Notes under the pieces: generated by a model | Told to the model about the DNA's origin: nothing | Databases searched by the model: none | Seen by the model: only the letters and a program-made list of their open reading frames with translations | Part shown: piece by piece, positions 18,240 through 42,558 of the stretch | Numbering within the stretch: the first letter of the stretch is position 1 | Layout: every line of letters starts with the position of its first letter | Made by a program: the position numbers and the translations under genes | Assembly: GCF_054482525.1 (NCBI RefSeq) | Contig: NZ_CM137006.1 | Strand: one strand, 5' to 3' | Length of the DNA stretch: 64,000 nt

Positions 18240-18791
18240 TCAGTTTGCAGATGCAGTAGGTCTGATGGTAATTTCGGTTGTATCAACGCTTTCGGGAGAT
18301 TCAATAATATGCCTTACAGCACGGGCAATATCCGCGGGTTGAAGTGCAACAGAACGGTAGGCGTCTATTGACTTCATGGTTTCCACATGGGTAATGGTTG
18401 AAGCCAGTTCACTTTCTACAACCCCAGGATTTACGCAGGTCACACGGATTTTCGAGCTTTCCTGCCGTAAGCCATCCGAAATAGCCCGTACTGCAAATTT
18501 TGACGCGCAATAGACTGCGCCTGTGGGCACAACAGAAAGGGCACCAATAGAACCAAGATTGATTATCTGACCGGAACCCTGTGCTTCCATCACCGGAAGT
18601 ACAGCGCCAATTCCCCAAAGTACACCTTTGATATTCACGTCAATAGTGAGTTCCCATTCATCTTGTTTTCCTGCTGCAAGCGGTGAAAGCGGCATAACGC
18701 CCGCATTATTGATAAGAACATCAACTCGCCCCCAGCTATCCAGCGCTGCTTGCACGAAATCTGCCATGGACTGTCGGTCTGTGACATCCAA
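18240..18791 (-). pseudogene. 5'-truncated short-chain dehydrogenase/reductase (SDR)
   Basis: Carries central and C-terminal SDR motifs (NNAG, catalytic YxxxK as YCASK) but lacks the N-terminal TGxxxGxG Rossmann segment; abuts the integrase fragment. Confidence 0.7.
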
Positions 18792-18796
18792 CTTGC

Positions 18797-18962
18797 ATTT
18801 TCAGAAATGGGAGGCTGGGAGTCTATCGAAATGGTTCGTCGATATGCTCACCTCGCGCCTAATCACCTTACCGAACACGCACGGCAAATAGACTCAGTCC
18901 TGAACCCATCGGTCCCAAATTTGTCCCAGTCAAAAAAAAAGGAAGGTACTAATTATGTGTAA
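18797..18962 (+). pseudogene. C-terminal fragment of a tyrosine integrase
   Basis: [28 protein letters not shown] matches the conserved integrase C-terminus (catalytic Tyr in RYAHL); only about 55 codons remain. Confidence 0.6.
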
Positions 18963-18970
18963 CTTATTGA

Positions 18971-18992
18971 TTTAAATGGTGCGATAATAGGA
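18971..18992. repeat. Distal att-like direct repeat (degenerate copy of tRNA-Thr 3' end)
   Basis: tttaaatggtgcgataatagga matches tttgaaatggtgccgataatagga at 42535..42558 with two single-base gaps. Confidence 0.5.
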
Positions 18993-19170
18993 ATATAACA
19001 CACCACATATATTCTTTGATAAATATGACTATTTTCTTGTTTCATCTTTATAAATGCCCCCTTTTGTGCCCCCACCTTGTTTTTCATGCGACTCGATGAG
19101 ACTTTCATCGAGTCGTTAATCTCATCAAATTCTTCACGTATCGTGGAAACCTTCGCAGATCTCCATCCCC

Positions 19171-19539
19171 TCACAGCCGTGATCGGCTAAGAACAATATT
19201 ACTTACCTCCCTGTAAGAACACCGGCTCATCAGCCCGCACGCTTTCCTGGCTTGAAGAATGTCTGTCGCAGTCAAATATGGTGCTTGTACCTGAGAGGTA
19301 AATCCATTGCGATCAATACGAACTAACTCATATTTCTCTACCAGAAAGTTAACGGCATTAGCCAGAGTGATACCGGCATCGATATGCTCCTTTATAACGG
19401 TTTCATCGCTAAAAGGTGTGTCGCTTAGCATTAGGCCATAGTGCTGCTCAAGCAGACGAGTAAGTAACATTTGCCAGATTGCAACGGGCGACAGACAGGG
19501 CTTCGCCGCCCGCGAAATTGTAGCAGGTAGATTTTTCAT
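19171..19539 (-). CDS. cbtA: CbtA/YeeV/YkfI-family toxin (type IV TA)
   Basis: Start trimmed to [36 protein letters not shown], closely resembling remembered CbtA/YeeV; ATGA overlap with upstream antitoxin. Confidence 0.8.
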
Positions 19540-19877
19540 GTTTGCTCTCGTGAAATTTGTTTGCGCTGAGGGGGATAAATGGCGATGTATACGTAGCCGC
19601 AACTACCAAGGGTATCGGCTTCGCAGGTGAAACCGTTGTGGTACAGGGTGACACAGTGGGCATGGCGGGGATTCATTTCACCAGTGGTCAGCATCGATTC
19701 CATCTGACTGATAAAATGTGGAAATACGACATCCAACTTCAGGCTTTCGGCATCACTAAACTTACCGGTGATACTTGCCCGGTCAGCCAGATAGTGCAGC
19801 CGGTTGCCCTCCTGCACCAGACGTGCTCCCAGGCACGGCGTGATATCCCGCTGCAGGCCCCATGTGGGGTTGCTCAT
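19536..19877 (-). CDS. cbeA: CbeA/YeeU/YfjZ-family antitoxin
   Basis: 113 aa; [20 protein letters not shown]...[14 protein letters not shown] matches the YeeU family. Confidence 0.8.
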
Positions 19878-19894
19878 TTATAACCTCTTTATTG

Positions 19895-20116
19895 TCAGTT
19901 CAGGGTAATACTCACCAGACAGGTATAAGGTCCGTTGCGATCCTGGCGGCGTTCGACGTATACCGCCAGCACACTGGAAATGTCAGGAACCACCTTAACG
20001 GTGTATTGACAGACACTGCCATGCCACTGGTATCTGCCAGTGCAGAATCGAACAATGCGGGAGGCCGGATGCTGACGGTAAATCGTCATCGCCAGGCGTT
20101 TACTGATAATTTTCAT
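19895..20116 (-). CDS. DUF987 protein (YeeT/YkfH-like)
   Basis: MKIISKRLAMTIYRQHP...YQWHGSVCQYT resembles YeeT; conserved position upstream of cbeA. Confidence 0.65.
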   Translation of the reverse strand: MKIISKRLAMTIYRQHPASRIVRFCTGRYQWHGSVCQYTVKVVPDISSVLAVYVERRQDRNGPYTCLVSITLN

Positions 20117-20124
20117 GTAATACC

Positions 20125-20604
20125 TCAAAGCAGACCATGTTCAGCGAACGACAATATCTGCGTACCACCGACGATAAGGTGGTCGAGCACCCGGATCTCC
20201 ACCAGCATCAGTGCATGTAACAGTCGTTGAGTGATAGCCTTGTCGGCCTGGCTTGGAGTCACTTCTCCGGACGGGTGGTTATGGGCAAATATCACCGCCG
20301 CCGCATTAAAGTACAGCGCGCGTTTCACCACCTCGCGAGGATGAACCTCAGTGTGACTGATGGTGCCGGTAAAGAGCGTTTCGTGGGCAAGCAGCTGGTT
20401 CTGGTTATTGAGGTACAACACGACAAACACTTCGCGCTCAAGGGGGCCCATTTTCAGCCTGAGCCAGTCGCGGGCAGCCTGAGTCGAGGTGAATGCCACA
20501 CCCGGTTCTAGCAAGTGCTGGTCAAGCAGAACCAAGGCTCGCTTAATGGTACGCAGTGCTGGTAACGGCAGTTCAGGTGTAAACATAGTCAGTTGTTTCG
20601 CCAT
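20125..20604 (-). CDS. RadC-like JAB-domain protein (YeeS/YkfG-like)
   Basis: JAMM-like motif HNHPSGEVTPSQADKAIT; 159 aa. Confidence 0.75.
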   Translation of the reverse strand: MAKQLTMFTPELPLPALRTIKRALVLLDQHLLEPGVAFTSTQAARDWLRLKMGPLEREVFVVLYLNNQNQLLAHETLFTGTISHTEVHPREVVKRALYFNAAAVIFAHNHPSGEVTPSQADKAITQRLLHALMLVEIRVLDHLIVGGTQILSFAEHGLL

Positions 20605-20980
20605 AGCAAATATCCTTAATTAAAGGTGGTGAGAATGACACTGGATTCGGCACGACAGGCGTGATGGTCGTATTCGAGTAGGAAGATGGTAATATGATTG
20701 CGGAATGCATGAGGAAACGAAGCCAGCAATGACCCAGTGACTCACACCCAATCACAGTGTTAAAAATAAAAAAATCCCGCAATCCAGCGAGGATTGCATT
20801 GGGATAATATCTATCTGTAATTATTTAGAAAAAATGTTTTTTTTCTGAGGTCTATTATAAATTTTTTTCGTTCAGAAACTTCTCGGATATGATCATCTGC
20901 TGAGTACCAAGAACGGACATTGTACCCAATAGTGAGTTAATCATTGGAACGTTGATCACCCCAATTGAAAATTTTCACAA

Positions 20981-21003
20981 TATCCAATATCCAATATCCA
21001 ATA
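20981..21003. repeat. Short tandem repeat (tatccaa x3)
   Basis: tatccaatatccaatatccaatat read directly from sequence. Confidence 0.6.
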
Positions 21004-21032
21004 TATCGGTGTAGAGGGCTTCTCTCTTAAAC

Positions 21033-22230
21033 TGATCCTACCCGCGTAATGTGGACACGCTCCTAAGCGAGATTCTGGTTTTCAAACTGTTTCGGGCTGA
21101 GGCCGCCATAATCGCTGTGACGCCGCCAGCGATTGTAATCGCACTTAATCCGCCGTCCGCATGATTTCCCGGCTGATAAAGCGTTCTCCGTGGATACACT
21201 CGACTTTTAACGAGTGTAAGAAGCTTTCCGCACAGGCATTATCATAACAGCAACCTTTTGCGCTCATGCTGCCATGCAGATTATGTCGTTTCAGCAGAGC
21301 CTGATAATCCGCTGAGCAGTACTGCCCGCCACGGTCGGTGTGAATTCGCCGCCACAGCGCCATCTGCAGTGCATCACAGGCAAGTTCTGCCGTTATTTGC
21401 GAGGACACCAACTAGCCAATAATAGCACGCGACCACCAGTCTATAACCACGGCAAAGTATAACAAGCTTTCATCGATGCGAAGGTACGTGATGTCACCAG
21501 CCCACTTCTGGTCCGAGCCACTAGATCTGAAGTCCTGCTTCAGCAGATTCTCCGGCACTGGCTGGTCGTGAGCACAGTAGATTAACGGGCTGAACAGACG
21601 TGAGGTTTTTGCCCGCAGGCCCTGACGACGCGAACTGTTGCTATCGTTTTGATGTTGTATTCCGGCGGCTCGTCTGCAAGACGAGCCGCACCATAACGCT
21701 GTTTTGCCTCAACGAATACCTTACAGACAGCTTCATTGAAGACGCACCGGAACTGTTGCCGATGGCTCAGTTGGGGACGACGCAGACACCAGGTATACCA
21801 GCAGCTGTGCGCCACGCACAGCACCCGACACATAGCTTTGATACTGAACTCAACCTGATATTTTTCGATAAAGATATACTTCATTTCAGGCGCTACGCGA
21901 AGTATGTCGCGCCCTTTTGGAGAATAGCCAACTCATTATCCCGCTCAGCCAGTTGACGTTTGAGGCAGGCAATCTCCGCTGCTTGTGCGCTCTCTCTCAG
22001 AGGATATTGTCTGGTGCAGTTGTTTGTAGAGCTGGGAATCGTAAAGGCTGAGTTCACGGGCGGTAGTGGCCACACCGAGACGTTCGGCCAACTTAAGGGC
22101 TTCTTCACGAAATTCAGGCGTGTGTTGTTTGCGTGACTTTTGTTGATTGATGCTGATTTTGTCATGTGAGCTACCTCTGATTGAGAGTTTACTCGCTTAG
22201 TCCCGTGTCCACTATTGGTGGGTAGGATCA
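21033..22230 (-). mobile_element. Degraded IS3-family insertion sequence (frameshifted orfA, interrupted orfB)
   Basis: Terminal inverted repeats tgatcctaccc (21033) and gggtaggatca (22220); ORFs 21893..22231, 21582..21884 and 21145..21411 match InsE C-terminus ([23 protein letters not shown]) and InsF N- and C-terminal parts, but not as continuous frames. Confidence 0.75.
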
Positions 22231-22579
22231 TTATTGATCAAAGATCAAGATGTGCAAAAATTCCCAAGTAAAGCCTTATCTGAACCTTCCGTTTTGTTAG
22301 CACATCTGACATTATTATTCAGTCAAATCCCTTCAGTTGATTGAGTTCAAAGGCGGTAGCTATGCTGATTTGCATTACTGTAAAACTTTTAAAGCAGAGG
22401 TTTATATAGAATTGCTCTGTTGAATAAATTAGTAGGTTCACATGGATTTTGAGTTCACCAAGCATGACAACTTGCGTTCTTCAAGCGATCCTGAGAAGCC
22501 TATTATATTAGTGTACAAGATGCCTCACGTGGCACCACTGAATTTTACATTAGACTCTATCCATTAAAACGATAAAATT

Positions 22580-24313
22580 ATGTACATAGCAAAAATTAAA
22601 TTTACAAATTTCAAATCATTCAAAGAGATGTCTTTTGAGTGCAATGATAAATTCAACATAATTGTTGGTGAAAATAATATTGGTAAAAGCACATTATTTG
22701 AGGGGGTAAGTTTATGGAAATATGCTTATGACAACCTTATTCAAGAAAAAAACAAAAACAAATTCTACAAAGCTTCAACTAACTACTACATTACCTATTC
22801 TACACTCGATCAAATAAGACTTGTTGACGATATTGATATTTTTAACGACCCAAAGAATAGCTCCGCATCAATATGCATTACAATTAAAGATGAACAAAAT
22901 GAATTTGATTTAGAGATTAGATTTGAAAAGCCAGGGATTAAAAATTCATACTTACGGATATTTAATAGCAATGGTTCTGATAATGACACACAGTTTTCAA
23001 ACTTTGAACGATTCTCAAACTATATAAAAGAAAAGGATTGCACTCTAAAAGATGCCATTTACATTTACCAAACAAGACCAATATCAACTATTTTTAGAGA
23101 TGAGCCATTTTACAATAATGCGCAGATAGAGAAAAAAATAAATATTGGAAAGTCACATGATGTCTTAAGGAATAAAATATTAAAAACCGAAAATACTCAA
23201 GCCACAAGGGTTGCACAAAAATTTGAAAATCTTGAGATTCGCCTACAAAAAGTCCTTGGTGAAAACTATATCTTAAAATTTAAGAATAGAAATCGAATCG
23301 ATGATGAGTATGTTAAAATAACTGCAACAAAGGAAAACGGGAAAGAATTGGAAATATCACTTATGGGTAGTGGTTTTTTGCAAGTCTTAGAGATATTTTC
23401 AACAATTGAGTATATGGAAAAGAATTCAACCGGTATTAACCTCATTCTTATCGATGAGCCTGATTCACATATCCACTCAAATTTACAAGCAAATTTAATT
23501 GACGAACTAAAGCAACAAACAGCATGTCAAATTTTTGTCATAACACATAATGACAGACTAACATCAAAAGCTAATGAAGGTGAGCTTTTTTATCTAAATC
23601 AGATAGTTAAGGATCTTGGTTTATTGTCTCACCTTGAAATATCTGATTATTCAAAAGTTAAAGATGGTCTAGCTAATGTACTAACAGCTATAAATGATGG
23701 AGATGAAACACCCATTGTTATAACTGAAGGAAAAACGGACCAGAAAATTTTAACAACTGCTTGGGAAAAGCTAAACCCAGGAACTCCTATGCCTTTTAAA
23801 ATAATTTCATCCGGCATTCAAATTGAAGAGGAAAAAAGAACTGGGTGCGCAGAGGCAGTTAGAAGATCTTTAGAATACATTTCAACATTAACTGATAGAA
23901 CAATTATCGGTTTATTTGATAATGATCGGGAGGGAAATGAGCAGTTCAAAGGATTAAATCGTTCTATTTTTGAACCTCATGACCTGCAAAATAACTCCCG
24001 AAAACATCAGATAAAAAATATCTATGGGCTTATTCTTCCCGTTCCTGTGCATAGAGAACGTTTTGTACAAAACAATTCTTTAACGCAGCGTTACTTCGTA
24101 ATTGAACAATATTTCCAAGATGAAATATTACTACAGCATAACATGAAAGGTGAGTCAATATTAGGTACTGAGGTATTTTTTGTTAATGACTCAAGAAAGA
24201 ATGAGTTTTCAGAGTCAACCAATGACCTTCCGGTAGAATGCTTTGGGGATTTTAGTATTTTATTCGATAAAATTTCCGATTTATTGGCTAACAATAGACC
24301 AGAAAACACTTGA
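22580..24313 (+). CDS. OLD-family ATP-dependent endonuclease (ABC-type ATPase + C-terminal TOPRIM)
   Basis: Walker A GENNIGKST, Walker B/H-loop LILIDEPDSHIH, TOPRIM glutamate IVITEGKTD and DxD motif FDNDREG; 577 aa; strongly AT-rich codon usage. Confidence 0.7.
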   Translation: MYIAKIKFTNFKSFKEMSFECNDKFNIIVGENNIGKSTLFEGVSLWKYAYDNLIQEKNKNKFYKASTNYYITYSTLDQIRLVDDIDIFNDPKNSSASICITIKDEQNEFDLEIRFEKPGIKNSYLRIFNSNGSDNDTQFSNFERFSNYIKEKDCTLKDAIYIYQTRPISTIFRDEPFYNNAQIEKKINIGKSHDVLRNKILKTENTQATRVAQKFENLEIRLQKVLGENYILKFKNRNRIDDEYVKITATKENGKELEISLMGSGFLQVLEIFSTIEYMEKNSTGINLILIDEPDSHIHSNLQANLIDELKQQTACQIFVITHNDRLTSKANEGELFYLNQIVKDLGLLSHLEISDYSKVKDGLANVLTAINDGDETPIVITEGKTDQKILTTAWEKLNPGTPMPFKIISSGIQIEEEKRTGCAEAVRRSLEYISTLTDRTIIGLFDNDREGNEQFKGLNRSIFEPHDLQNNSRKHQIKNIYGLILPVPVHRERFVQNNSLTQRYFVIEQYFQDEILLQHNMKGESILGTEVFFVNDSRKNEFSESTNDLPVECFGDFSILFDKISDLLANNRPENT

Positions 24314-25088: not shown

Positions 25089-25499
25089 TCAGTAACCAGT
25101 TTTAACCTTGTACATCAATAGTGTTTTACTGCCCCGGACAATTTTCACATACAGGGCATTATCTTTCGTGCCTCGCACAAAACCGGCCTGCACATCGCCC
25201 TTACAGTCACCACCGTCGTAAGGAATATTGACACCTGTCTGACGCACCAGATCAATAACCCCGAAGCTTAAGTCCTCACAGGCCGGGCCCGGCAGGTCCT
25301 GAATCAGGGCAAATTTATGGTCGTCGCTGACACCGGTCAGTGAGCACATGGAGGTATTGATGTCGTTTCCCTGGCACCAGTACTCCTGACCGGGATTATC
25401 TTTATCCATCAGACTTGCCGGAAGCTGAGCGGCACCGGCACTGAAGGCGGCAAGTGACAGAATGAGGGCGGGTACAGCAGAGGTCATTATTTTCAGCAT
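25089..25499 (-). CDS. Hypothetical secreted Cys-containing protein
   Basis: Signal peptide MLKIMTSAVPALILSLAAFSAGAA; 136 aa. Confidence 0.5.
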   Translation of the reverse strand: MLKIMTSAVPALILSLAAFSAGAAQLPASLMDKDNPGQEYWCQGNDINTSMCSLTGVSDDHKFALIQDLPGPACEDLSFGVIDLVRQTGVNIPYDGGDCKGDVQAGFVRGTKDNALYVKIVRGSKTLLMYKVKTGY

Positions 25500-25565
25500 G
25501 GTTTTCTTCCTGAATTAATCCAGCCCGCTGTCGGGCAAAATGAGGGAGGTTGGTATCGGGTATTA

Positions 25566-26003
25566 TCAGAAGCGCCGGTAGCGAAACAGCTCTTTGCCCT
25601 GGTAAAGTGCCACCAGGTCGTCATATTCCGGCTTCTTCTGGTTGGGCTTAAAGGTCACTACCGTGCCCGGACGGCACAGATCTTTTACGGTGAGACCGAA
25701 TTTCCTATCCGGAGTAATGGTGAATCCCTTCGACACATCGTTGTGCATGATAGTTATCCAGCCCCACAGGCCGCCTTCGCAGTCCTTAAAGGGTGCTGAA
25801 CGAACTGTTACCATCCCACCCAGGCGGTCAACAGACATGGCTTCACATTTTCCGGTAACCTGTCGATGCGCATCACACCAGAAAATATTCCCGTTGTTGT
25901 CATTGACGACTGCAGGTAGCGTTCGGTTATAAGGCTGAGCCTGAGCGCCCACACAGAGCAGAAGGCTGCCGGTAATACCCAGTACTTTAATCAGTGTTTT
26001 CAT
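25566..26003 (-). CDS. Hypothetical secreted Cys-containing protein (possible paralog of 25089..25499)
   Basis: Start trimmed to MKTLIKVLGITGSLLLCVGAQA signal peptide; similar size and Cys/Trp spacing to the neighbour. Confidence 0.5.
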   Translation of the reverse strand: MKTLIKVLGITGSLLLCVGAQAQPYNRTLPAVVNDNNGNIFWCDAHRQVTGKCEAMSVDRLGGMVTVRSAPFKDCEGGLWGWITIMHNDVSKGFTITPDRKFGLTVKDLCRPGTVVTFKPNQKKPEYDDLVALYQGKELFRYRRF

Positions 26004-26044
26004 TACGTTGGTCCTTAACAGAGAAAGAATCAGGTAGCAGTCAT

Positions 26045-26581
26045 TCAGGCCCAGACGGTCAGGCCCAGCATCAAAAGCCATACCCAGAAGTAAGCCGGTT
26101 TCTGACCGAGAGTTTTCGCCCGCCGCCACAAATAGAACGGCACCAGCCAGGCCAGTTTGCCGAACGTGGTAGTGTCCACTCCGGCCTTACGAAGGCGTCG
26201 TTCATCGAGATACCCCAGAGCGATATTGAGCAGCAGCGTGATAAACCAGTACTGCCCACCCGAGACGGCATCATATGCCTCGTCAAATGACATCCCGCTC
26301 AATCCTGCAGTCCACAACTCCAGCGCGTAGCCAATGAAGGGAGCAAATGCAAGCGTCCACACAACGCCACCCGGAATGCGGTTCCCCGTCAGCGCTGGCG
26401 GTGTGGTGCTGTGGAGCAGCGCCGAAGCCAGCGGGGTGGCGGAGACCGGTTGCCAGTCCGGCATGCCCTGTCGCCACACCAGCGTGGCAGCGGTGAGTTC
26501 ACCGCGCTTAATCAGGTTAGTGATGTCGTCTTCGGTCACATTGTCGTGACGTATGCCATTTTTCTCGTAATGCCAGGTCAT
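26045..26581 (-). CDS. Membrane protein with N-terminal DUF4339/GYF-like domain
   Basis: N-terminus WHYEKNGIRHDNVTEDDITNLIKRGELTAATLVWRQGMPDWQPV followed by hydrophobic helices. Confidence 0.5.
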   Translation of the reverse strand: MTWHYEKNGIRHDNVTEDDITNLIKRGELTAATLVWRQGMPDWQPVSATPLASALLHSTTPPALTGNRIPGGVVWTLAFAPFIGYALELWTAGLSGMSFDEAYDAVSGGQYWFITLLLNIALGYLDERRLRKAGVDTTTFGKLAWLVPFYLWRRAKTLGQKPAYFWVWLLMLGLTVWA

Positions 26582-26606: not shown

Positions 26607-27317
26607 TTAAATCAGTGTATTGCCATGCTCCTCCTCAGAGGGCCCATGAGACAGGACTTCGCGAATACAGCTGAAGTGCGGAAGAGCCCGAATAAAGCCC
26701 GCCTGTGTGGTTAACTGGCTGAGACGTTTTCGCGGGGTAAAAGTGGTGTTCAGGACTGTCACCGCATGGATGGTCGCCAGAGGGTGCACAGTGATATGCC
26801 CGTTAAGTTCACCGGTGAGGTACCAGCAGCCGTCGAGTGATATCAGGCGGTACGGAGCCAGCCCGTCACAGCGCTCTCCCTCGGCCAGCAGCAGTACCCG
26901 CTGGCAGGCGGTAATGGCACTGACGAGACGGTAGAACACCAGTGAGATGGTCGGTGACACAGACTGTGGCGGCTGCCATACCAGACACGGCATCCCTCCC
27001 GCAGTGAGCAACATGCCCGCCAGACGCCGGTCCAGCCCCGGAAAAATATCGGCCAGTCCGGCCCGGTGTGCGAAGGTCAGCGCATCAAGCTCCCCCTGTA
27101 CGCCCCCACCGGTGCTGCGCAGGCGGCATTGCCCCCGTCGATACTCAAGGTCGAGGTACATCAGCCGTTCGCGAAAATCCCGTCGCAGGGTACGGACTGA
27201 CACACCAAACTCTGCAGCCAGCCGCGCCATGTTCAGCGTTTCACCGGCAACCAGGCGGCTGATTATCAGTGACAGCCTGACAGCCAGCCGGTCATGACGG
27301 CGATCTGCCTGTGTCAT
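26607..27317 (-). CDS. HTH + WYL-domain transcriptional regulator
   Basis: N-terminal HTH (LNMARLAAEFGVSVRTLRRDF) and WYL motif (LISLDGCWYLTGE). Confidence 0.7.
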   Translation of the reverse strand: MTQADRRHDRLAVRLSLIISRLVAGETLNMARLAAEFGVSVRTLRRDFRERLMYLDLEYRRGQCRLRSTGGGVQGELDALTFAHRAGLADIFPGLDRRLAGMLLTAGGMPCLVWQPPQSVSPTISLVFYRLVSAITACQRVLLLAEGERCDGLAPYRLISLDGCWYLTGELNGHITVHPLATIHAVTVLNTTFTPRKRLSQLTTQAGFIRALPHFSCIREVLSHGPSEEEHGNTLI

Positions 27318-27525
27318 CTTAAATCTCCGTAATAATTAACTGACTGAATATGAAATGATTCTAAAGAGGGGGGCGGACAGGGTATGGACACGGAATGAAC
27401 TATTTTTTATCTGCCACCGGAAGCAGGTCTGACGCGGTGCTCCGTGAAATACGATGAAAAAACACCCAATCAAATGGAGGTAAAACGGACAGGGAGTGTC
27501 CTTTCCCAACATACTGATAACAAGC

Positions 27526-28365
27526 TCAGGACTGAAATCCACTCAACATCGCTTCTGCCATCACCCAGAGAGCCCGGTTGAGCTTCACATCTCCGTCGAT
27601 ACCACGCACGGCGCGGGTATGCGTTCGCCCGCCTTTCGCACTCCGACCACTGAGCCCGCCCTTAATCAGGTTCTCCTGAATACGCTGATATGTGGTCCAC
27701 AGATCATTGCTCTCATCCTGCCAGCGGCGTGGGGAGAGTATCTGAGGTGCTGTCACTGGCTGGTGGTCCTCACCGAAACGGTACGTCAGTGCAGCCTGTG
27801 CCAGAGCCTGTTGTGCAGGTGGCGGCAGCATCAGCGACTGCATGGCATCCCGCTTCTCTTCCACACGGTCAAAAATACCCAGTACTTCATACGCCCCCTC
27901 AATCACCTGACTCACAACATCTCCTTTGTGCGGCACACGCACCTCGCCAAACGACTCACCGCAGACAAGCCCGTTCTGGCATACCGCGCGGAATAATCCC
28001 GGCAGCATCTGATACGAGCTGGTGCCGTCATGAGAGTTGAGCAGAATGATTTCCGGGACTTGCTTGCCGGTAATTTGCCCCTCCCGACGCAGGCGCAGCA
28101 TGTGCTTTGTGTGGTCGCGGCGACCTGGGTCACGCACTCTGGTCTGACAGGCAAAGAAGGGCTGAAAGCCTTCGCGCTGCAGACTGTCGAGGAGAGAAAT
28201 CGTGGGTATATATGTGTACCGTTCACTGCGAGATTCGTGTTTGTCCTCGCTGAAAACACTGGGCACTACACGAAATAGCTCTTCGCGGGTTAACGGACGG
28301 TCACGACGGATAAGATTTGATGCGCCAAAGCGCGAAGCCAGACGGGTCATAAGCAGACTCCTCAT
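27526..28365 (-). CDS. DUF932-family protein (YfjQ/YafZ-like)
   Basis: 279 aa; resembles the CP4-type prophage proteins YfjQ/YafZ; sits next to the YfjP-like GTPase as in CP4-57. Confidence 0.55.
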   Translation of the reverse strand: MRSLLMTRLASRFGASNLIRRDRPLTREELFRVVPSVFSEDKHESRSERYTYIPTISLLDSLQREGFQPFFACQTRVRDPGRRDHTKHMLRLRREGQITGKQVPEIILLNSHDGTSSYQMLPGLFRAVCQNGLVCGESFGEVRVPHKGDVVSQVIEGAYEVLGIFDRVEEKRDAMQSLMLPPPAQQALAQAALTYRFGEDHQPVTAPQILSPRRWQDESNDLWTTYQRIQENLIKGGLSGRSAKGGRTHTRAVRGIDGDVKLNRALWVMAEAMLSGFQS

Positions 28366-28445
28366 GATGGGAAAATAAAGACAGAAAAGCCCTACCGCTC
28401 AATCGCGGCAGGGCTCAGGAAACTACGGGTTAGAAGGGTTAATGT

Positions 28446-29309
28446 TCAGAAGAAGAAGTTCCAGACTGCACGAGCGACCGATACCACGATGTCGCGTACA
28501 GACTGGATGACAGTCCGAACCGGGGACGGTATCAGGGGCATGGAACTTACTGTATCCAGTACCGAGCCGACCGTTTCACCAAAATCGTCGCGGGCTTTTT
28601 TATTAATGGCATCGGTACGAAGTGGATCACTAAGCTGTACCGCCACCGGACTACTGGCCTCCCGCGGCAGGCAATGAATCATCCGTTCAGCCATTACCCG
28701 CAGCCCCCATTGCAAACGTACCGACACCGCACAGACAGGGTTAACAGGTTGGAACAACTCATGCAGTAGACAGATTTTGCGGCTGATATTTTGTTTCTGC
28801 TCTGTAGACAGCTTTTCACCACCGCTGGTGGGTTCAACCTTGTCGGACTGACTGATAACAAACAACACCTTATGCCGGTATGCTTCACCAATCACCTGCA
28901 GGTAAAAATGTTCATCCACCGCTAGTGCTCGATCATCGGCCTTAATCAGCCACAGTACCAGATCGAGTTGCGTCAGTTGCTGGCGATACATCGCAGCATA
29001 TTCCGCATCACGACTTTTGCTTTCACCGACACCGGGCAGATCTACTATGGTCATAAAGCGTTCGCCAACTTGCAGGCGAAAGCGCAAAGGTTCGCGTGTG
29101 CAGGCGCTCACATCGCTGACCGGAGAGATTTTTCCGGCAAACAGCGCATTACAGAGTGATGATTTACCCGACCCGGTTTTCCCCATAATGCCGATCACCG
29201 GCTCATAGTGAGTAAGCTGGTTTACCTGTTGCAGAATACGCTCTGATGCCCACTGCGGCAGGCCAGAAAGCGATTGCTGCAGCGACTGCAAACCTTCAGA
29301 TTTTTTCAT
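28446..29309 (-). CDS. GTPase, YfjP/YkfA/YeeP family
   Basis: P-loop GIMGKTGSGKSSLCNALF, DLPG switch motif; start trimmed to MKKSEGL. Confidence 0.75.
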   Translation of the reverse strand: MKKSEGLQSLQQSLSGLPQWASERILQQVNQLTHYEPVIGIMGKTGSGKSSLCNALFAGKISPVSDVSACTREPLRFRLQVGERFMTIVDLPGVGESKSRDAEYAAMYRQQLTQLDLVLWLIKADDRALAVDEHFYLQVIGEAYRHKVLFVISQSDKVEPTSGGEKLSTEQKQNISRKICLLHELFQPVNPVCAVSVRLQWGLRVMAERMIHCLPREASSPVAVQLSDPLRTDAINKKARDDFGETVGSVLDTVSSMPLIPSPVRTVIQSVRDIVVSVARAVWNFFF

Positions 29310-29431: not shown

Positions 29432-30490
29432 TCAGGAATGCGCCCTGACTTTTTCTGTTTTTACCATTAATCCGGCATACTCACGTTCAATAAGTGAGGA
29501 CATTAAATCTGACTCAGACTCACCATATATTTCTGACAGTCTGGCGAGTTTCTTTTTAGTTCTGGCTGAAATTTTTATTGTCATATCGTTCTCTTTAGAC
29601 TGTCTGCGAAACAGTTTCTGATCCCAGGCTTTTTGCAGTTCACCCATCAGGACTGCTTTATGTCGCAGGGGAGAGCGCGGAAGCGTCAGTAAATCAGCGA
29701 AGTTCTGACTCATTTTTTTTCGATTTCCCTTTAAATAACTCAGTTGCTCATGAGTCCAGCCCTCCCACTGATCAAAAGTAGCACAAATAAAAAGCCAGCG
29801 TTGATAGTTATTCAGCGGATTTATCGGAGGGCAAACCGCCTTCTTTTTCATCAGGTTCCATACCCACAAGCACTGTTTTTCATCATTGATATCCAGCCAT
29901 GAAAAAGCTTCAGGAAAGTCACCACAGGCCTGTCCCCATGCAGTATTTATTGCTTTTATTAGCTTGCGCCGGGTTTCAGTTTCTGCATCACAGAGTTCTC
30001 TTAATACACACTCAAAAACATCATCAACTCCAGTTGCCATTTCCCTCATGAATGGTGAGTAAATCCCATTGGCGTAATAAAAATCTGGCGGCATCATCTT
30101 TTTTGGAGTGGACATTTTACCCAGGGTTGATTTTTCAGAAGCTGATTCAAGGTTTGTGTTTAATATGTTTTCTAACAGCTCATCACCTTCATAACCCTTA
30201 CCTTCATTTGTTTGATTAAAATTAAATTCTGGCATCATTCCTGGAAGTGTTGCTGCTTTATTTTTTTCAATACTTAGCTCAATTGACTCCGTCCCCAGAG
30301 CCCTAGCAGATATCTGACTGGGTTCGTCTATATGATCCTGGCGAACAACTGCTGACCTCCACTCACTCAGAAAACGAGCAATATAGAAAAAATAGAAACA
30401 TGCGGCACGGGGATTTTTATCAAGCCACCTCAGCTTCTTTTTTAATAACTTGTATTTTTCTTGAGCGCCCAGCGCCTTCTCTTTGCTCAT
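29432..30490 (-). CDS. Hypothetical protein with C-terminal ribbon-helix-helix-like segment
   Basis: 352 aa; C-terminus MTIKISARTKKKLARLSEIYGESESDLMSSLIEREY looks like a CopG/RHH fold; no other recognisable motif. Confidence 0.45.
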   Translation of the reverse strand: MSKEKALGAQEKYKLLKKKLRWLDKNPRAACFYFFYIARFLSEWRSAVVRQDHIDEPSQISARALGTESIELSIEKNKAATLPGMMPEFNFNQTNEGKGYEGDELLENILNTNLESASEKSTLGKMSTPKKMMPPDFYYANGIYSPFMREMATGVDDVFECVLRELCDAETETRRKLIKAINTAWGQACGDFPEAFSWLDINDEKQCLWVWNLMKKKAVCPPINPLNNYQRWLFICATFDQWEGWTHEQLSYLKGNRKKMSQNFADLLTLPRSPLRHKAVLMGELQKAWDQKLFRRQSKENDMTIKISARTKKKLARLSEIYGESESDLMSSLIEREYAGLMVKTEKVRAHS

Positions 30491-31783: not shown

Positions 31784-31996
31784 ATGACCAGTAAACCTTC
31801 CTTGTCCGAAGACCAGTTCGTTGATATGGCTTTTATCACCCGCCTGCTGGGGGTCAGCGATAAATGGATTTACCGACTCATTAAGGATGGCATATTTCCA
31901 AAACCCATCAAACTGGGACGAAGCTCCCGCTGGTTACAAAGCGAAGTCGAAGCCTGGCTGCAGGCCCGTATTGATGCATCCCGCCCTCAACACTAA
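31784..31996 (+). CDS. alpA: AlpA-family phage regulatory protein / excisionase-like
   Basis: 70 aa; VDMAFITRLLGVSDKWIYRLIKDGIFPKPIKLGRSSRW is the classic AlpA HTH. Confidence 0.8.
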   Translation: MTSKPSLSEDQFVDMAFITRLLGVSDKWIYRLIKDGIFPKPIKLGRSSRWLQSEVEAWLQARIDASRPQH

Positions 31997-33351: not shown

Positions 33352-33963
33352 ATGTTTGACAATATCTGTCTCGATAGACGGCATGCACCATTCAACACCA
33401 CTTACCTACAGCGTATTCTACGCGTTATAGATAACGCGACTGCAGAGCATGCACGGACGATGGCAGTTCGGGTAGACCTGCGTCTTCCTGACAATATGCT
33501 CATTAACCGACAGGGCCTGATATCTCGTTTCATTGAATCCCTTGATGCAAAGATTGCAGCGCGCTACAGAAGTAAGTTGAAGCAGGGTAAACGAACATAT
33601 CCATGCCACCTTCGCGATGCCTGGGTTCGGGAGGTGGGTGAGATTAATCAGAAATCGCATTACCACATGGTGTTGTTCGTGAATAACGATACATTCAATG
33701 GGCTGGGGAGTTACAAAGAAGATGGGACGGGCCTGGCGTCCTTGATACGAGAGGCCTGGCTGAGTGCTTTACAGCTTAGTCACCGCCCAGAGCACTGGAC
33801 GCTAGCCCACTATCCCGATAATCCACTTTATTTTCTGGATATTAATTCCGCTGGCTACAAAGAGTCTTATGACCAACTGACGTTTCGGTTAAGTTATTTT
33901 GCGAAGGAACGCACCAAAGATTACAACAGGGAGGAACGTTCATTCGGATGTAGCCAGGGCTGA
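33352..33963 (+). CDS. YagK/YfjJ-family (inovirus Gp2-like) protein
   Basis: Start trimmed to MFDNICLD; resembles CP4-57 YfjJ / CP4-6 YagK. Confidence 0.55.
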   Translation: MFDNICLDRRHAPFNTTYLQRILRVIDNATAEHARTMAVRVDLRLPDNMLINRQGLISRFIESLDAKIAARYRSKLKQGKRTYPCHLRDAWVREVGEINQKSHYHMVLFVNNDTFNGLGSYKEDGTGLASLIREAWLSALQLSHRPEHWTLAHYPDNPLYFLDINSAGYKESYDQLTFRLSYFAKERTKDYNREERSFGCSQG

Positions 33964-34753: not shown

Positions 34754-36853
34754 ATGAACCGAGAGCAAGCCCAACAACTGCTGCAGACTGCTTTGGCTAA
34801 CCCTGCTGCTGAATTTCGTGATGGTCAGTGGGAAGCCATTGATGCATTGGTTAATCGTCGTCAGAAACTACTGGTTGTACAGCGTACCGGCTGGGGTAAG
34901 AGCTCGGTTTATTTTATTAGTACTAAAATCTTCCGTGACCGCGAGATGGGGCCTACGATTATTGTATCGCCACTGCTTGCATTAATGCGTAACCAGATTG
35001 ATTCAGCGCAGCGTTTGGGAATAGTTGCCGAAACAATGAATTCGGCTAATAGGGAGGATTGGCAGGCTGTAACTCAACGAATTCTCAATAACCAAATAGA
35101 CTGTTTGCTCATTTCCCCAGAGCGGCTAGCAAATGATACCTTTATTGAGACGGTCCTTCAGCCCATTGCCGATCGAATCGCCCTAATGGTAATTGACGAA
35201 GCACACTGTATTTCAGATTGGGGTCATGATTTTCGTCCTGATTATCGCCGTATCGTAAATATCCTTCGTCAATTGCCCGCCAACACCCCAGTACTAGGTA
35301 CGACTGCAACTGCCAATAACCGAGTTGTTGACGATATCCAAGCCCAGCTTGGGGATATACAAATCCACCGAGGTCCTCTTACTCGCGAAAGCCTCGCTCT
35401 GCATACAATGTCTTTACCCGATCAGGCATCTCGTTTAGCTTGGCTCGCCCAAGTTATTCCGATGCTACATGGAACAGGCATTATTTACGCATTAACAGTT
35501 CGTGATGCCGAGCAGGTGGCAGAATGGTTGAGCATGCACGGTATAGTTGCCATGGCATACCACGGTAGCATCGAGGCTGAAGGTTTTGAGAACAGCAATG
35601 CTTACCGTCAGTACTTAGAAGAATTGTTACTTAACAACCAGCTTAAGGTTTTAGTAGCAACGACCGCGTTGGGTATGGGTTATGATAAACCTGATTTAAG
35701 TTTTGTAATCCATTACCAAGCTCCGAGTTCAATTGTTGCATACTACCAGCAGGTGGGTCGGGCTGGGCGCGGTATTGCTCATGCAACAGGTGTACTGATG
35801 TCGGGGATAGAAGATAACGACATCCATGATTTTTTCCGTGATTCTGCATTTCCATCGGAGGATCAAGTTAACGATATTCTTCGAGTGTTGGAAAATAATG
35901 ATGGTCTATCACTCCGCAACATCGAGGAAAAAACTAACCTACGCCACGGCCAGATTGAGAAAGTACTTAAGTTACTGAGTGTAGAAAATCCAGCCCCCAT
36001 CATTAAAAATGAAAATCGTTGGGTTAGGACCACAGTTCGCTATCAAATGGATCATGCCCGAATTGCTCATTTGACAGGACAACGTATTCAGGAATGGGAA
36101 GAGGTTCAAGCGTACCTTACCGACACTGGATGCAAAATGGCATTTCTACGTCGTTCTCTGGACGATCTCGACCCAACTCCATGTGGTAAATGCTCGTCCT
36201 GTATTGGTCAACCAATTATAAATCAAATCATTGACCCTGCTTTGGTACATCGTGCAGGGACTTTCCTAAAACATGCAGAAATGCCGATTACTCCAAAAGC
36301 TCAGGTAGCAGCTAATGCTTTTTTGCAATATGGCTTCAGCGGCAATTTGCCACAGCAGATTAGAGCACAAGAAGGTCGAGTGTTGTCTCGCTGGGGAGAT
36401 GCTGGTTGGGGACGGTTAGTAGCCGATAATAAACGTGCAGATCACTTTGATGATGAGCTAGTGGTTGCTATGGCCGAGATGATTCAGCAGCGTTGGCAAC
36501 CGAATCCAGCGCCACAATGGGTATGCTGTGTACCTTCACGCAATCATGTACAATTAGTCCCTGATTTCGCTCGCCGCTTGGCGGCATGTTTGAGGTTGCC
36601 TTTTTTCAATGCCATCAGCAAGGTTAGAGATAACCAACCTCAAAAGGGGCAACAAAACCGTTTCCATCAATGCCGCAATCTGGACGGTGCTTTTGAGATA
36701 AATCAACCTCTACCTAACACACCGGTTCTACTTGTAGATGACATTGTAGATTCAGGCTGGACGTTAACTGTCATCGCAGCACTCCTACAACGCGCAGGTA
36801 GTGGTAAAGTATACCCTGTTGCACTTGCTTCATCTTCGGTAAAAGACTCATGA
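34754..36853 (+). CDS. RecQ-family helicase fused to a C-terminal phosphoribosyltransferase-like domain (PsyrT-like)
   Basis: Helicase motifs GWGKS (I), DEAH (II), TATA (III), QQVGRAGR (VI); C-terminal type-I PRTase motif VLLVDDIVDSGWTLT. Confidence 0.8.
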   Translation: MNREQAQQLLQTALANPAAEFRDGQWEAIDALVNRRQKLLVVQRTGWGKSSVYFISTKIFRDREMGPTIIVSPLLALMRNQIDSAQRLGIVAETMNSANREDWQAVTQRILNNQIDCLLISPERLANDTFIETVLQPIADRIALMVIDEAHCISDWGHDFRPDYRRIVNILRQLPANTPVLGTTATANNRVVDDIQAQLGDIQIHRGPLTRESLALHTMSLPDQASRLAWLAQVIPMLHGTGIIYALTVRDAEQVAEWLSMHGIVAMAYHGSIEAEGFENSNAYRQYLEELLLNNQLKVLVATTALGMGYDKPDLSFVIHYQAPSSIVAYYQQVGRAGRGIAHATGVLMSGIEDNDIHDFFRDSAFPSEDQVNDILRVLENNDGLSLRNIEEKTNLRHGQIEKVLKLLSVENPAPIIKNENRWVRTTVRYQMDHARIAHLTGQRIQEWEEVQAYLTDTGCKMAFLRRSLDDLDPTPCGKCSSCIGQPIINQIIDPALVHRAGTFLKHAEMPITPKAQVAANAFLQYGFSGNLPQQIRAQEGRVLSRWGDAGWGRLVADNKRADHFDDELVVAMAEMIQQRWQPNPAPQWVCCVPSRNHVQLVPDFARRLAACLRLPFFNAISKVRDNQPQKGQQNRFHQCRNLDGAFEINQPLPNTPVLLVDDIVDSGWTLTVIAALLQRAGSGKVYPVALASSSVKDS

Positions 36854-38175
36854 ATGTATCTAACTTATTGTCAAAAACAGCCCAGGCGACCTTACTTCTG
36901 ACTAGTTATTTTTCTAAAGCAACTAGCGAAAACGCCAAACCACTTTCCAACGCCGAATGGGGACGTTTTGCGCTATGGTTGAAAGAAAAAGCAGTTACGC
37001 CAGCTGACTTGTTGGACTCTGATCCTCAAACCTTACTGAATGGCTGGTACGACTCCCGTATCAGTACGGATCGGATCATTGAGTTGATGAATCGAGGACA
37101 TAGCCTCGCTTTGGCTATGGAGAAATGGCAACGGGCAGGCTTGTGGGTAGTGACACGTTCTGATCCAGAATATCCATGGAGATTAAAACATCGGCTTAAA
37201 ACAGACTCTCCCCCTGTTTTATTTGGCTGTGGCAATAAAGCCTTATTAAATAGAGGGGGATTGGCTGTCATTGGTTCTCGAAATGCCAATGCATCAGACC
37301 TTACTTTTACTGATCACATCGGCGTTAAAGCTGCGGACGAAAATATAGCTGTTGTATCTGGTGCTGCACGTGGAGTAGACGAAACAGCCATGTTAGGTGC
37401 AATGAGGCAAGGTGGAGTTGTAATCGGGATTTTGGCAGATAGCCTGTTAAAAGCTGCGACTAGTGCCAAATGGCGCAAGGGGCTTATGAATGACCATGTT
37501 GTGCTAATATCCCCTTTTTACCCTGAGGCTGGTTTCTATGCGGGAAATGCCATGGCTCGCAATAAATATATCTATTGCTTGTCGGATAGTGCATTGGTTA
37601 TTCATTCTGGTCGAAAAGGTGGAACAATTAGTGGGGCAGAGGAAAATCTTAAGAAAGGATGGGTGCCACTATGGGTCAATCCAACAACCGATCTAGATTC
37701 AGCTAATGCTGACTTAGTGAGCAAAGGGGGACATTGGTTGCCAAGTGATAGTAATGGCCTATCCATCGAGAATTTGCTTAAAAATAATGACAGATCAAAA
37801 ATGCAGTTAAAAGCAGAGCCCCAAGATCTTTTTTCAGAATTGTCGCATCCAGAATTAATTATTGGATCTGCAGAGAAATCGTCAACTCAAGCTCTCGAAA
37901 AAGATTGGACTGCTACTATTAATGAAGAAACTCCCAACCTAATAACTACGGAAAAAAAATTAGAGGAAAAAGAGTTAGATGTAAATCCTATAGACTTTTA
38001 TCTGCTATTCAGGACAGAATTACAGCGATTGGCCGAACATCCAATTACAGTAGATAGGTTGACAGAAGTCACTGGGTTGAATAAATCGCAAGTGCTTGAT
38101 TGGTTGAAACGTGCTGAACAAGATGGTTTGGTAAAAAAACTAAACCGTCCTACAAGATATCAATTAAATGAGTAG
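36850..38175 (+). CDS. DprA/Smf-like Rossmann-fold protein with C-terminal winged helix (PsyrA/ShosA-like)
   Basis: DprA core LAVIGSRNA...VVSGAARGVDETAMLGA...GGTI; ATGA start/stop overlap with the upstream helicase gene. Confidence 0.75.
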   Translation: MNVSNLLSKTAQATLLLTSYFSKATSENAKPLSNAEWGRFALWLKEKAVTPADLLDSDPQTLLNGWYDSRISTDRIIELMNRGHSLALAMEKWQRAGLWVVTRSDPEYPWRLKHRLKTDSPPVLFGCGNKALLNRGGLAVIGSRNANASDLTFTDHIGVKAADENIAVVSGAARGVDETAMLGAMRQGGVVIGILADSLLKAATSAKWRKGLMNDHVVLISPFYPEAGFYAGNAMARNKYIYCLSDSALVIHSGRKGGTISGAEENLKKGWVPLWVNPTTDLDSANADLVSKGGHWLPSDSNGLSIENLLKNNDRSKMQLKAEPQDLFSELSHPELIIGSAEKSSTQALEKDWTATINEETPNLITTEKKLEEKELDVNPIDFYLLFRTELQRLAEHPITVDRLTEVTGLNKSQVLDWLKRAEQDGLVKKLNRPTRYQLNE

Positions 38176-39346: not shown

Positions 39347-39354
39347 TAATTAGC

Positions 39355-40446: not shown

Positions 40447-40463
40447 TTCTGTGTAGTTCCATC

Positions 40464-40931
40464 TTATTGATTATCTGATTTTATATTTTTGCTTTCAATA
40501 TATTCTTTGTGAATATTATTCCATTCTTGACTGTCTTTTTCCCAAATAGATTTATATTCATCAAAAAGACTATCAATATCTGACTGGGTTACATCTTCTT
40601 TGGATTTTAAGTAATTAACTTTGTTTCTAAGTTGATACATGGCTAGCAAAGTAGCTTTTTGCCTAAACCATAATTTTTGATAATCAAATCTTGCAGTCCA
40701 CCCACTAACTAGAGTAAGACAGGCACTCACAATAAGAGCAGAATTTTTCTGTATTTTTTCATATCCAGATAAATCGAAGGCTAATATCAGTGTAGTAATA
40801 GTGCTCAAAAATATAGTCATGAAAAAAAATATTTTTAATTTTTTTTTATTCCATTTCGCCTTGCACTTTATTATGTTGATACTTTTATGGATTTCATCCA
40901 GTAAAAACTGTTGAGAAGATGTTATAGACAA
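40464..40931 (-). CDS. Small 2-TM membrane protein, SLATT-like
   Basis: Two hydrophobic helices (FFFMTIFLSTITTLILAF, ALIVSACLTLVSGW) followed by a charged helical tail; first gene of the three-gene operon. Confidence 0.5.
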   Translation of the reverse strand: MSITSSQQFLLDEIHKSINIIKCKAKWNKKKLKIFFFMTIFLSTITTLILAFDLSGYEKIQKNSALIVSACLTLVSGWTARFDYQKLWFRQKATLLAMYQLRNKVNYLKSKEDVTQSDIDSLFDEYKSIWEKDSQEWNNIHKEYIESKNIKSDNQ

Positions 40932-42378: not shown

Positions 42379-42534
42379 TGGGGGCATCTCCCTGGACCGA
42401 ACACAGAATGCCCCCACTTATGCCCCCAACTGCGACTTGATTTCGGTTGAGTCCAGTTGATAACAGGAGATAAGATACGGGCCAGAAACCGCAGTATACG
42501 GGCTTTTAGTTGATTTCGGTAGACTTGGGAAGAG

Positions 42535-42558
42535 TTTGAAATGGTGCCGATAATAGGA
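42535..42558. repeat. Proximal att-like repeat overlapping the tRNA-Thr 3' end
   Basis: tttgaaatggtgccgataatagga; partner at 18971..18992. Confidence 0.5.

Follow-up and report, generated by a model that had tools for sequence, protein, structure and literature searches.

A radC-DUF987-cbeA-cbtA block at the integrase-distal end of a CP4-type island at thrW in Escherichia coli

We conclude that the DNA at 19171–20604 is very probably an intact operon, radC-DUF987-cbeA-cbtA, of the kind that is standard at the integrase-distal end of P4-like (CP4-type) islands in Enterobacteriaceae; here it ends a thrW island of about 23.6 kb. This P4-like integrative island occupies 18.97–42.56 kb of the window, the 64,000-nucleotide stretch of contig NZ_CM137006.1 (assembly GCF_054482525.1) that was analysed, and carries the block at the end away from its integrase. 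The four minus-strand genes are tightly packed at exactly the coordinates first given (Table 1); from radC to cbtA, the genes are separated by 8 nt (radC stop to DUF987 start, with a GAGG ribosome-binding site) and 17 nt, and the last two overlap by 4 nt. The agreement of protein families, gene order and coordinates far exceeds chance. The module is very common in E. coli and already annotated, and the finding is correct but ordinary.

Table 1. Coordinates (window positions) of the four-gene block, the island that carries it and the neighbouring features
Feature	Position	Strand	Remarks
3' remnant of a lambdoid-prophage integrase gene	18804-18962	plus	Just outside the island end; 'integrase, incomplete' in SCU-102
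Probable attR, imperfect direct repeat of the thrW 3' end (TCCTATTATCG-CACCATTT)	18974-18994		About 180 nt beyond cbtA
cbtA/yeeV-family toxin gene	19171-19539	minus	122 aa
cbeA/yeeU-family antitoxin gene	19536-19877	minus	113 aa: 105-aa core and 8-aa C-terminal extension
DUF987 gene	19895-20116	minus	73 aa; homologue of YkfH, YpjJ, YeeT
radC-like JAB/MPN gene	20125-20604	minus	159 aa; homologue of LfgB/YfjY, YkfG, YeeS
3'-end remnant of antirestriction (lfgA/yfjX/yafX-like) gene and radC ribosome-binding site	20605-20648	minus	Homology to the L012 radC allele ends at 20648
Intrinsic-terminator-like hairpin and U7 run	20778-20798	minus	174 nt upstream of radC, on the coding strand
Degenerate IS3-family element	21034-22290	minus	'IS3 family transposase, frameshifted; internal stop' in SCU-102
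CP4 backbone genes	26607-29309	minus	GTPase 28446-29309, DUF932 27526-28350, DeoR-type regulator 26607-27317; tblastn and Pfam
P4-type tyrosine integrase	41176-42378	minus	Arm-DNA-bind_3, Phage_int_M and Phage_integrase domains
thrW, tRNA-Thr(CGU), attL side of the island	42542-42617	minus	ARAGORN; Rfam tRNA 71.8 bits

The initial annotation had recognised the conserved four-gene block of CP4-44, CP4-57 and CP4-6, and Pfam, BLASTP and gene order all bear this out. Pfam E values range from 6e-33 to 2e-57 over the four proteins, order and orientation are those of all three elements, and BLASTP identity to the three K-12 copies is 57–90%, the nearest being YpjF/YfjZ of CP4-57. The alignment that had been proposed as a check gives 57% and 65% identity to YeeV/YeeU and 77% and 85% to YkfI/YafW, so the low identity that was to refute the reading is not seen. 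NCBIfam has no model for CbtA, CbeA or DUF987. Against the K-12 copies, dN/dS is 0.06–0.18 in all four genes, which are thus under purifying selection.

The RadC-like protein matches RadC JAB PF04002 (152.3 bits against a cut-off of 22.1, E 7e-45) and exceeds the cut-off of TIGR00608 (152.6 bits). It is 77% identical to LfgB(YfjY), 73% to YkfG and 75% to YeeS, and the residues of its JAMM motif (E...HxH...S..D), E86, H108, H110, S118 and D121, are all invariant in the alignment. The next protein matches DUF987 PF06174 (113.1 bits against 25, E 6e-33), with 82% identity to YkfH, 76% to YpjJ and 58% to YeeT; to our knowledge it has no known role. Its gene lies between radC and cbeA here, but this is not universal, since in close relatives of this radC the gene is followed directly by cbeA. 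The antitoxin matches CbeA_antitoxin PF06154 (179.6 bits against 27, E 2e-53), is 90% identical to YfjZ, 85% to YafW and 65% to CbeA, and finds the solved structures of YfjZ (2JN7/2EA9, E ~1e-63) and YeeU (2H28, E 6e-44). Its gene lies directly upstream of that of the toxin. The toxin matches CbtA_toxin PF06755 over model positions 1–111 of 112 (192.4 bits against 25, E 2e-57) and is 79% identical to YpjF, 77% to YkfI and 57% to CbtA; a PDB sequence search with it as the query returned no solved relative. In a five-sequence toxin alignment F65, which CbtA, YpjF and YkfI require for FtsZ binding (PMC5624674), is invariant, and C15 is as in YpjF and YkfI. A 73-aa ORF at 18953–19174, whose start overlaps the cbtA stop, was considered as a YeeW-like fifth gene and rejected: it has no Pfam match, is not annotated in RefSeq and spans the attR repeat. 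A tblastn search of the window with YeeW found no match.

Toxicity, targets, neutralisation mechanism and protease activity are taken over from work on K-12, where toxicity, cross-neutralisation and a shared five-gene region near the attachment sites have been described (PMC5371832), as has the action of the toxin on FtsZ and MreB (PMC5624674). By homology, the 122-aa toxin would bind FtsZ at its H6/H7 loop and MreB at its flat face and would thereby block both division and elongation, giving lemon-shaped cells on overproduction. The CbeA-family antitoxin may counteract it without binding it, through stabilisation and bundling of the filaments of FtsZ and MreB, a type IV mechanism; K-12 CbeA is the only antitoxin for which such neutralisation is known (cited in PMC5624674 and PMC5371832). 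A homologue of JAB/MPN zinc metalloproteases is encoded by the radC-like gene, and its K-12 orthologue LfgB, from the operon lfgAB-ypjJ-yfjZF, is reported to degrade the antitoxin MqsA (PMC10846083).

The surroundings of the block identify the island. An Rfam scan of 17–43 kb found thrW only, and the island integrase lies directly downstream of this gene, 164 nt away. Its identity to CP4-57 IntA is 39%, and it scores 300 bits with NF007246, below the cut-off of that model. With tblastn, backbone homologues were found for YfjP (81%), YkfA (79%), YfjQ (94%), YafZ (96%) and YfjR (58%), and Pfam matches include Phage_AlpA and YagK_YfjJ_C, the latter in a YagK/YfjJ-family protein. The island showed neither virion genes nor genes for P4 replication. 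The initial annotation held that the presence of the block confirms the CP4 lineage. The lineage itself stands, through the integrase, AlpA and the YfjJ, YfjP, YfjQ and YfjR homologues; "confirms" was too strong a word. Because the block also occurs on plasmids and is a recombination mosaic, the assignment rests on the other backbone genes.

This arrangement is widespread. E. coli SCU-102, in which RefSeq already gives the block genes the same names, matches the window at 99.99% identity, and about 300 public contigs carry the exact proteins (328 for the RadC-like protein, 305 for the 113-aa CbeA). All 24 contigs that were read have the identical arrangement. DNA resembling cbeA-cbtA is present in 5000 of 5426 complete E. 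coli genomes, and at least 80% of the block is covered in 20 plasmid records, one of them an Enterobacter hormaechei plasmid at 84%. A search of 50,697 phage records, as a test for a bona fide prophage, gave one partial match.

Upstream of radC, this copy has been altered. The closest uninterrupted radC allele (L012) has Antirestrict and DUF905 genes upstream, and alignment with K-12 and with the thrW island of ET490 (NZ_CP100947.1) agrees that only about 44 bp 5' of radC are still homologous here. At the place where ET490 has its DUF905 and antirestriction genes stand the IS3 element, a nuclease gene (22580–24313) and an IS110-like fragment, and no tblastn match to LfgA, YafX or the ET490 antirestriction protein was found in the window. 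The conserved unit of CP4-57 and CP4-6 has five genes, the first being the antirestriction gene (PMC5371832, PMC10846083); the absence of that gene is a secondary loss in this copy and not evidence against the CP4 lineage. The spacer at 20649–21033 is held only by SCU-102 among complete E. coli genomes, the others giving a match of about 100 bp at 76–80%. We also observed that the nuclease gene replacing the upstream region is OLD-like, and that a repeat search of 18.7–21.1 kb returned nothing beyond a 7-bp tandem repeat and short repeats at chance level.

These changes could mean that the block is a relic that is no longer transcribed, its antirestriction gene and operon promoter having been lost to the IS3/nuclease insertion, with the terminator insulating radC and the reading frames intact only because the event is recent. 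Besides the loss of DUF905, the antirestriction gene and the upstream region, the hairpin upstream of radC would fit this reading (−16.5 kcal/mol, z −4.0, none of 200 shuffles equally stable), as would the fact that from the end of the IS3 element to radC the coding strand has no sigma-70 consensus match of at least 9/12; the K-12 homologues are themselves transcribed only at low levels (PMC5371832). The significance of the hairpin, however, is uncertain because K-12 and ET490 have similar terminator-like hairpins just upstream of the module, and the missing promoter match is uninformative because the same scan also fails on the sense strand of the K-12 CP4-57 operon, where it misses the experimentally supported lfgA promoter region. 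Silence is thus not inferable from these scans. Moreover, all four reading frames are intact, and hundreds of assemblies whose protein sequences are identical share the whole arrangement, insertion included, as a fixed feature. We consider a silent relic unlikely.

Together with a change in cbeA, the same losses could instead be read as a rewiring of the module in this E. coli lineage. The ancestral cbeA stop codon has changed from TAA to AAA, and this substitution causes read-through of a 20-nt spacer that adds eight residues to CbeA and leaves its new stop overlapping the cbtA start (ATGA). The IS3/nuclease insertion separates the module from its antirestriction gene and from the promoter that MqsA regulates, and an extended CbeA is translationally coupled to CbtA. 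If a new promoter still drives the operon, its regulation and its toxin-to-antitoxin stoichiometry would depart from the K-12 paradigm, and the pair might then act as an addiction module holding the thrW defence island in place. We regard this full scenario as distinctly unlikely, and local changes are unsurprising for a highly recombinogenic module. With its lost antirestriction gene and promoter region, coupled extended antitoxin and mosaic radC, the block offers a natural variant for testing the expression balance of type IV toxin-antitoxin pairs.

For the CbtA/CbeA pair, the most likely role is low-level addiction (island stabilisation) and/or stress modulation. A primarily anti-phage function by abortive infection, or an anti-restriction/establishment function as a "moron" of the defence island, seems very unlikely in place of addiction. 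Such a function would suit the island cargo, which includes PsyrTA, an OLD/GajA/AriAB-like nuclease and a SLATT/RelA-SpoT cluster, and in a 2025 preprint RadC/ArdB and CbtA/CbeA are grouped with the phage-like morons that defence mobile elements carry as modules (PMC12458937). However, CbtA/CbeA are not known from experiment to act in defence, no PADLOC defence model matched RadC, CbeA or CbtA (three of the four block proteins were scanned), and the antirestriction partner has been deleted here.

The island boundary bears on a last alternative. Just beyond the block, the integrase remnant is fused to a 5'-truncated SDR gene (18240–18791, minus strand) and has 91–96% DNA identity to the end of the full-length integrase of a complete ET490 prophage at the same position; an origin as a remnant of IntF (CP4-6) was rejected, IntF having no match. 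The attR repeat matches the thrW 3' end at 20 of 21 positions, with one 1-nt deletion, lies in the thrW orientation and is also present in ET490; it is short and weak alone (BLAST E 0.35 within the window). That the block is foreign to the thrW island and without lineage information, having arrived with an adjacent, now deleted lambdoid prophage or by independent recombination, is highly improbable: although the prophage integrase remnant lies 209 nt from cbtA, the block is found on plasmids, and identity to ET490 falls from 96–100% over the integrase remnant, attR, cbtA and cbeA to only 72–80% over radC, the ET490 and P0038 contigs run uninterrupted through GTPase-DUF932-DeoR-...-antirestriction-radC-...-cbeA-cbtA, the block is essentially absent from sequenced phages, and the probable attR repeat, which separates cbtA from the integrase remnant, places it within the island.

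We therefore retain the reading of an intact integrase-distal module of a CP4-type island. The block matters little beyond its correct annotation. It does mark the integrase-distal end of the island and so helps to set the limits of the variable cargo, which is rich in defence genes and of more interest than the block.

Among known systems, CP4-57 (YpjF/YfjZ, LfgB(YfjY), YpjJ) shares the gene order, the orientation and the integrase-distal position near the attachment site, and likewise has an IntA-type integrase next to a tRNA-type gene, followed by AlpA, YfjJ, YfjP, YfjQ and YfjR homologues. In contrast to the present island, its attachment site is ssrA rather than thrW, it has lfgA (antirestriction) and the MqsA-bound promoter region, both absent here, and its K-12 YpjJ is truncated (66 aa), whereas the DUF987 gene here has its full length of 73 aa. 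K-12 also keeps the 20-nt spacer where the present CbeA runs eight residues further, and the toxin C-terminus is 13 aa longer here. CP4-6 (YkfI/YafW, YkfG, YkfH) has the same tRNA target, thrW, and the same block, and the DUF987 protein is closest to YkfH. However, its K-12 block adjoins thrW and is inverted relative to it, its integrase IntF lies at the far end and has no detectable match in the window, and its cargo is entirely different. Despite the shared tRNA, the island is not CP4-6 itself, given the unmatched IntF and the opposite orientation relative to thrW.

The founding type IV system, CbtA/CbeA (YeeV/YeeU) of CP4-44 with YeeS and YeeT, has the four Pfam families in the same order, but identity is only 57–75%, CbtA has R at position 15 where the present toxin has C, and CP4-44 has an 88-nt cbeA-cbtA spacer, a downstream yeeW and no integrase. 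Modules of RadC/ArdB and CbtA/CbeA (with DUF genes) have been located at the integrase-distal repeat of defence islands (PMC12458937), and the present block is alike in adjoining a direct repeat opposite the integrase of a defence-loaded island, although the ArdB-type antirestriction component is deleted in this copy. The thrW island of ET490 occupies the same site with the same backbone and other cargo (Dnd/Dpt, next to a complete prophage). It keeps its DUF905 and antirestriction genes, a 105-aa CbeA and the 20-nt spacer, and its radC is another allele, 72–80% identical, the block being a recombination mosaic. The two islands are nevertheless collinear over two blocks with 91–93% DNA identity, from the integrase remnant to radC and over GTPase/DUF932/DeoR/DUF4339; cbtA and cbeA are 96–100% identical, and past attR both have the same prophage integrase, complete in ET490 and a remnant here.

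The initial annotation described the interval 19171–20604 as a CbtA/CbeA type IV toxin–antitoxin pair with YeeT- and RadC-like genes, and this observation and its interpretation were correct. Four minus-strand ORFs occupy exactly these coordinates, a Pfam search assigned each protein to one family with a score far above the curated cut-off, and BLASTP matched them to the K-12 copies. The ORFs are closely spaced, with gaps of 8 nt (radC to DUF987) and 17 nt (DUF987 to cbeA), each containing a ribosome-binding site, and the cbtA start overlaps the cbeA stop as ATGA.

Features of the thrW island and its borders (window positions)
Feature	Position	Strand	Product	Remarks
Deletion scar	18240–18962			just outside attR
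thrW 3'-end repeat (probable attR)	18974–18994			20/21 positions, one deletion
cbtA-family toxin gene	19171–19539	minus	122 aa	CbtA_toxin PF06755, E 2e-57
cbeA-family antitoxin gene	19536–19877	minus	113 aa	CbeA_antitoxin PF06154, E 2e-53
DUF987 gene	19895–20116	minus	73 aa, from the ATG matching YkfH	PF06174, E 6e-33
radC-like gene	20125–20604	minus	159 aa	RadC PF04002, E 7e-45
Replacement segment	20649–25087			4.5 kb
AT-rich spacer	20649–21033			385 bp
Terminator-like hairpin	20778–20798	minus		U7 run
Tandem repeat	20975–21004			ATATCCA x3.5
ABC-ATPase/TOPRIM-like nuclease gene	22580–24313	plus	577 aa	strand opposite to block
Backbone ORFs	25089–26581, 29432–30490	minus	
AlpA-family regulator	31784–31996			farther into island than integrase
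YagK/YfjJ-family protein	33352–33963			farther into island than integrase
PsyrT/PsyrA-type pair	34754–38175	plus		inside island
Three-gene cluster	38357–40931	minus		adjoins integrase
P4-type integrase	41176–42378			after thrW; Arm-DNA-bind_3, Phage_int_M, Phage_integrase; 39% identical to IntA
G5/C5-containing short motifs	19040–19075, 42380–42430			by eye
thrW, tRNA-Thr(CGU)	42542–42617	minus	

The window proteins were compared by BLASTP with those of CP4-57, CP4-6 and CP4-44 of MG1655. Identities were, in that order, 79% (YpjF), 77% (YkfI) and 57% (CbtA) for the toxin; 90% (YfjZ), 85% (YafW) and 65% (CbeA) for the antitoxin; 76% (YpjJ), 82% (YkfH) and 58% (YeeT) for the DUF987 protein; and 77% (LfgB/YfjY), 73% (YkfG) and 75% (YeeS) for RadC. 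Alignment to YeeV/YeeU and YkfI/YafW, the check that had been proposed, thus spans 57–85% identity, which is clearly not low. The antitoxin matches solved structures of YfjZ (2JN7, 2EA9; E ~1e-63) and YeeU (2H28), and a PDB sequence search returned no structure related to the toxin. All four genes show dN/dS values of 0.06–0.18 against the K-12 copies (Nei-Gojobori), which indicates long-term purifying selection.

According to work in K-12, toxins of the CbtA family have two independent binding targets, the H6/H7 loop of FtsZ and the protofilament interface of MreB, and so stop cells from dividing and elongating (PMC5624674). Antitoxins of the CbeA family bundle FtsZ and MreB filaments, neutralize without binding the toxin and cross-protect among paralogues (PMC5624674, PMC5371832). 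Neither toxin nor antitoxin autoregulates the operon, transcription is low, and YkfI is not neutralized by its three upstream genes (PMC5371832). The window toxin keeps F65, the residue at which a serine substitution prevents CbtA, YpjF and YkfI from binding FtsZ (PMC5624674), and has Cys at position 15, as in YpjF and YkfI. JAMM residues are invariant in the RadC JAB domain; LfgB reportedly acts on MqsA as a zinc protease (PMC10846083). From the 57–90% identity and the conserved key residues, we infer that the K-12 mechanism would extend to this allele.

The window shares 99.99% identity with the E. coli SCU-102 chromosome, whose RefSeq annotation already gives the block genes the same names. 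The exact sequences of the four proteins occur in 305–328 public contigs, and the neighbourhood around radC was the same in 24 of the 24 contigs read; the arrangement is therefore fixed in the lineage rather than produced by assembly error. DNA resembling cbeA-cbtA is present in 5000 of 5426 complete E. coli genomes (median 3 copies, up to 13), and the four-gene block in 2307 at megablast level. The block is also found on some plasmids (20 records at ≥80% coverage) and is essentially absent from sequenced phages (one partial match in 50,697 records).

A change of the ancestral cbeA stop codon from TAA to AAA extends the antitoxin across the usual 20-nt spacer, adding KQISREQT before a TGA that overlaps the cbtA ATG. 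This extended 113-aa form occurs in 305 contigs. Compared with ET490, an E. coli with a related thrW island, the block is mosaic: identity is 96–100% over the prophage-integrase remnant, attR, cbtA and cbeA, and lower in the DUF987 gene (81–94%) and radC (72–80%). DUF987 itself appears dispensable, since contigs carrying close radC relatives (RadC at least 90% identical) have no DUF987 gene and place cbeA directly after radC. In these contigs the toxin is 106 aa, and other defence cargo (BrxC/PglY-like, ScoMcrA-like HNH) lies just past its gene.

ET490 and the contigs with a close radC allele carry DUF905 and antirestriction genes ahead of radC. In the window, homology to the closest allele ends at 20648, 44 bp upstream of radC, and backbone homology resumes at 25088; the intervening segment stands in place of those genes and comprises the spacer, a degenerate IS3-family element, the nuclease gene and an IS110-like fragment. 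Among the 5426 genomes it occurs in SCU-102 only, and it is fixed in draft assemblies of that lineage. The spacer, between an antirestriction remnant and the IS3 end, carries a 7-bp tandem repeat; in complete E. coli genomes other than SCU-102 it has just a ~100-bp match at 76–80% identity. The stand-alone ABC-ATPase, with a TOPRIM-like C-terminal half and insertion-sequence remnants (IS3-family and IS110-like) on either side, best matches NsnB, GajA and fused AriAB in PADLOC (E 1e-20 to 1e-22). In K-12 the operon runs lfgA-lfgB-ypjJ-yfjZ-ypjF, and a promoter region bound by MqsA precedes lfgA (PMC10846083); the window lacks this region. A stable coding-strand hairpin with a U7 run (−16.5 kcal/mol, z −4) lies 174 nt upstream of radC, and no sigma-70 match of ≥9/12 follows it. 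Since the same scan is also blank on the K-12 lfgA sense strand, and K-12 and ET490 likewise have terminator-like hairpins upstream of the module, these in silico results speak neither for nor against expression of the block.

Elsewhere in the island, a PsyrT-type RecQ-like helicase carrying a phosphoribosyltransferase domain at its C terminus (PsyrT, 1045 bits) is followed by a PsyrA-type, DprA-like protein (PsyrA, 563 bits), both very strong PADLOC scores. The three-gene cluster encodes a SLATT-domain 2TM protein (NF033634, 87 bits), an NA37/YejK-like nucleoid-associated protein and a RelA/SpoT-domain nucleotide pyrophosphokinase; with just a weak candidate PADLOC match (PDC-S33, E 2e-9), it may be an uncharacterised defence system. 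Several backbone ORFs (136, 145, 352 aa) have no Pfam family and a further one encodes a GYF_2/DUF4339 protein; they are ~93% conserved with ET490. Possible arm sites for an integrase or excisionase are the G5/C5 motifs near each end of the island (TGCCCCC and GTGCCCCC next to attR; repeated copies of TGGGGGCA downstream of thrW). The scar joins the final ~160 bp of a lambdoid-prophage integrase gene (plus strand), at ~18792–18804, to a 5'-truncated SDR oxidoreductase gene (minus strand); ET490 has a complete prophage there.

The block is a textbook module, already annotated, and its sole value here lies in delimiting the island. About 180 nt past the cbtA stop, a repeat of the thrW 3' end (TCCTATTATCG-CACCATTT) lies in thrW orientation, so the island probably spans ~18.97–42.56 kb (~23.6 kb), which would place the toxin–antitoxin block at its integrase-distal end. 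Membership of the CP4 lineage, first argued from the block, is borne out by the P4-type integrase at thrW, AlpA, YagK/YfjJ and homologues of YfjP/YkfA GTPase (81/79%), YfjQ/YafZ DUF932 (94/96%) and YfjR (58%). It cannot be equated with CP4-6, since the window contains nothing that matches IntF and the K-12 block sits right beside thrW in inverted orientation. The ET490 thrW island has the same architecture with different cargo (Dnd/Dpt). Published accounts put the K-12 systems in the same position as the block, "near the prophage attachment sites" (PMC5371832), and likewise the "moron" modules of defence islands that combine RadC/ArdB with CbtA/CbeA (PMC12458937).
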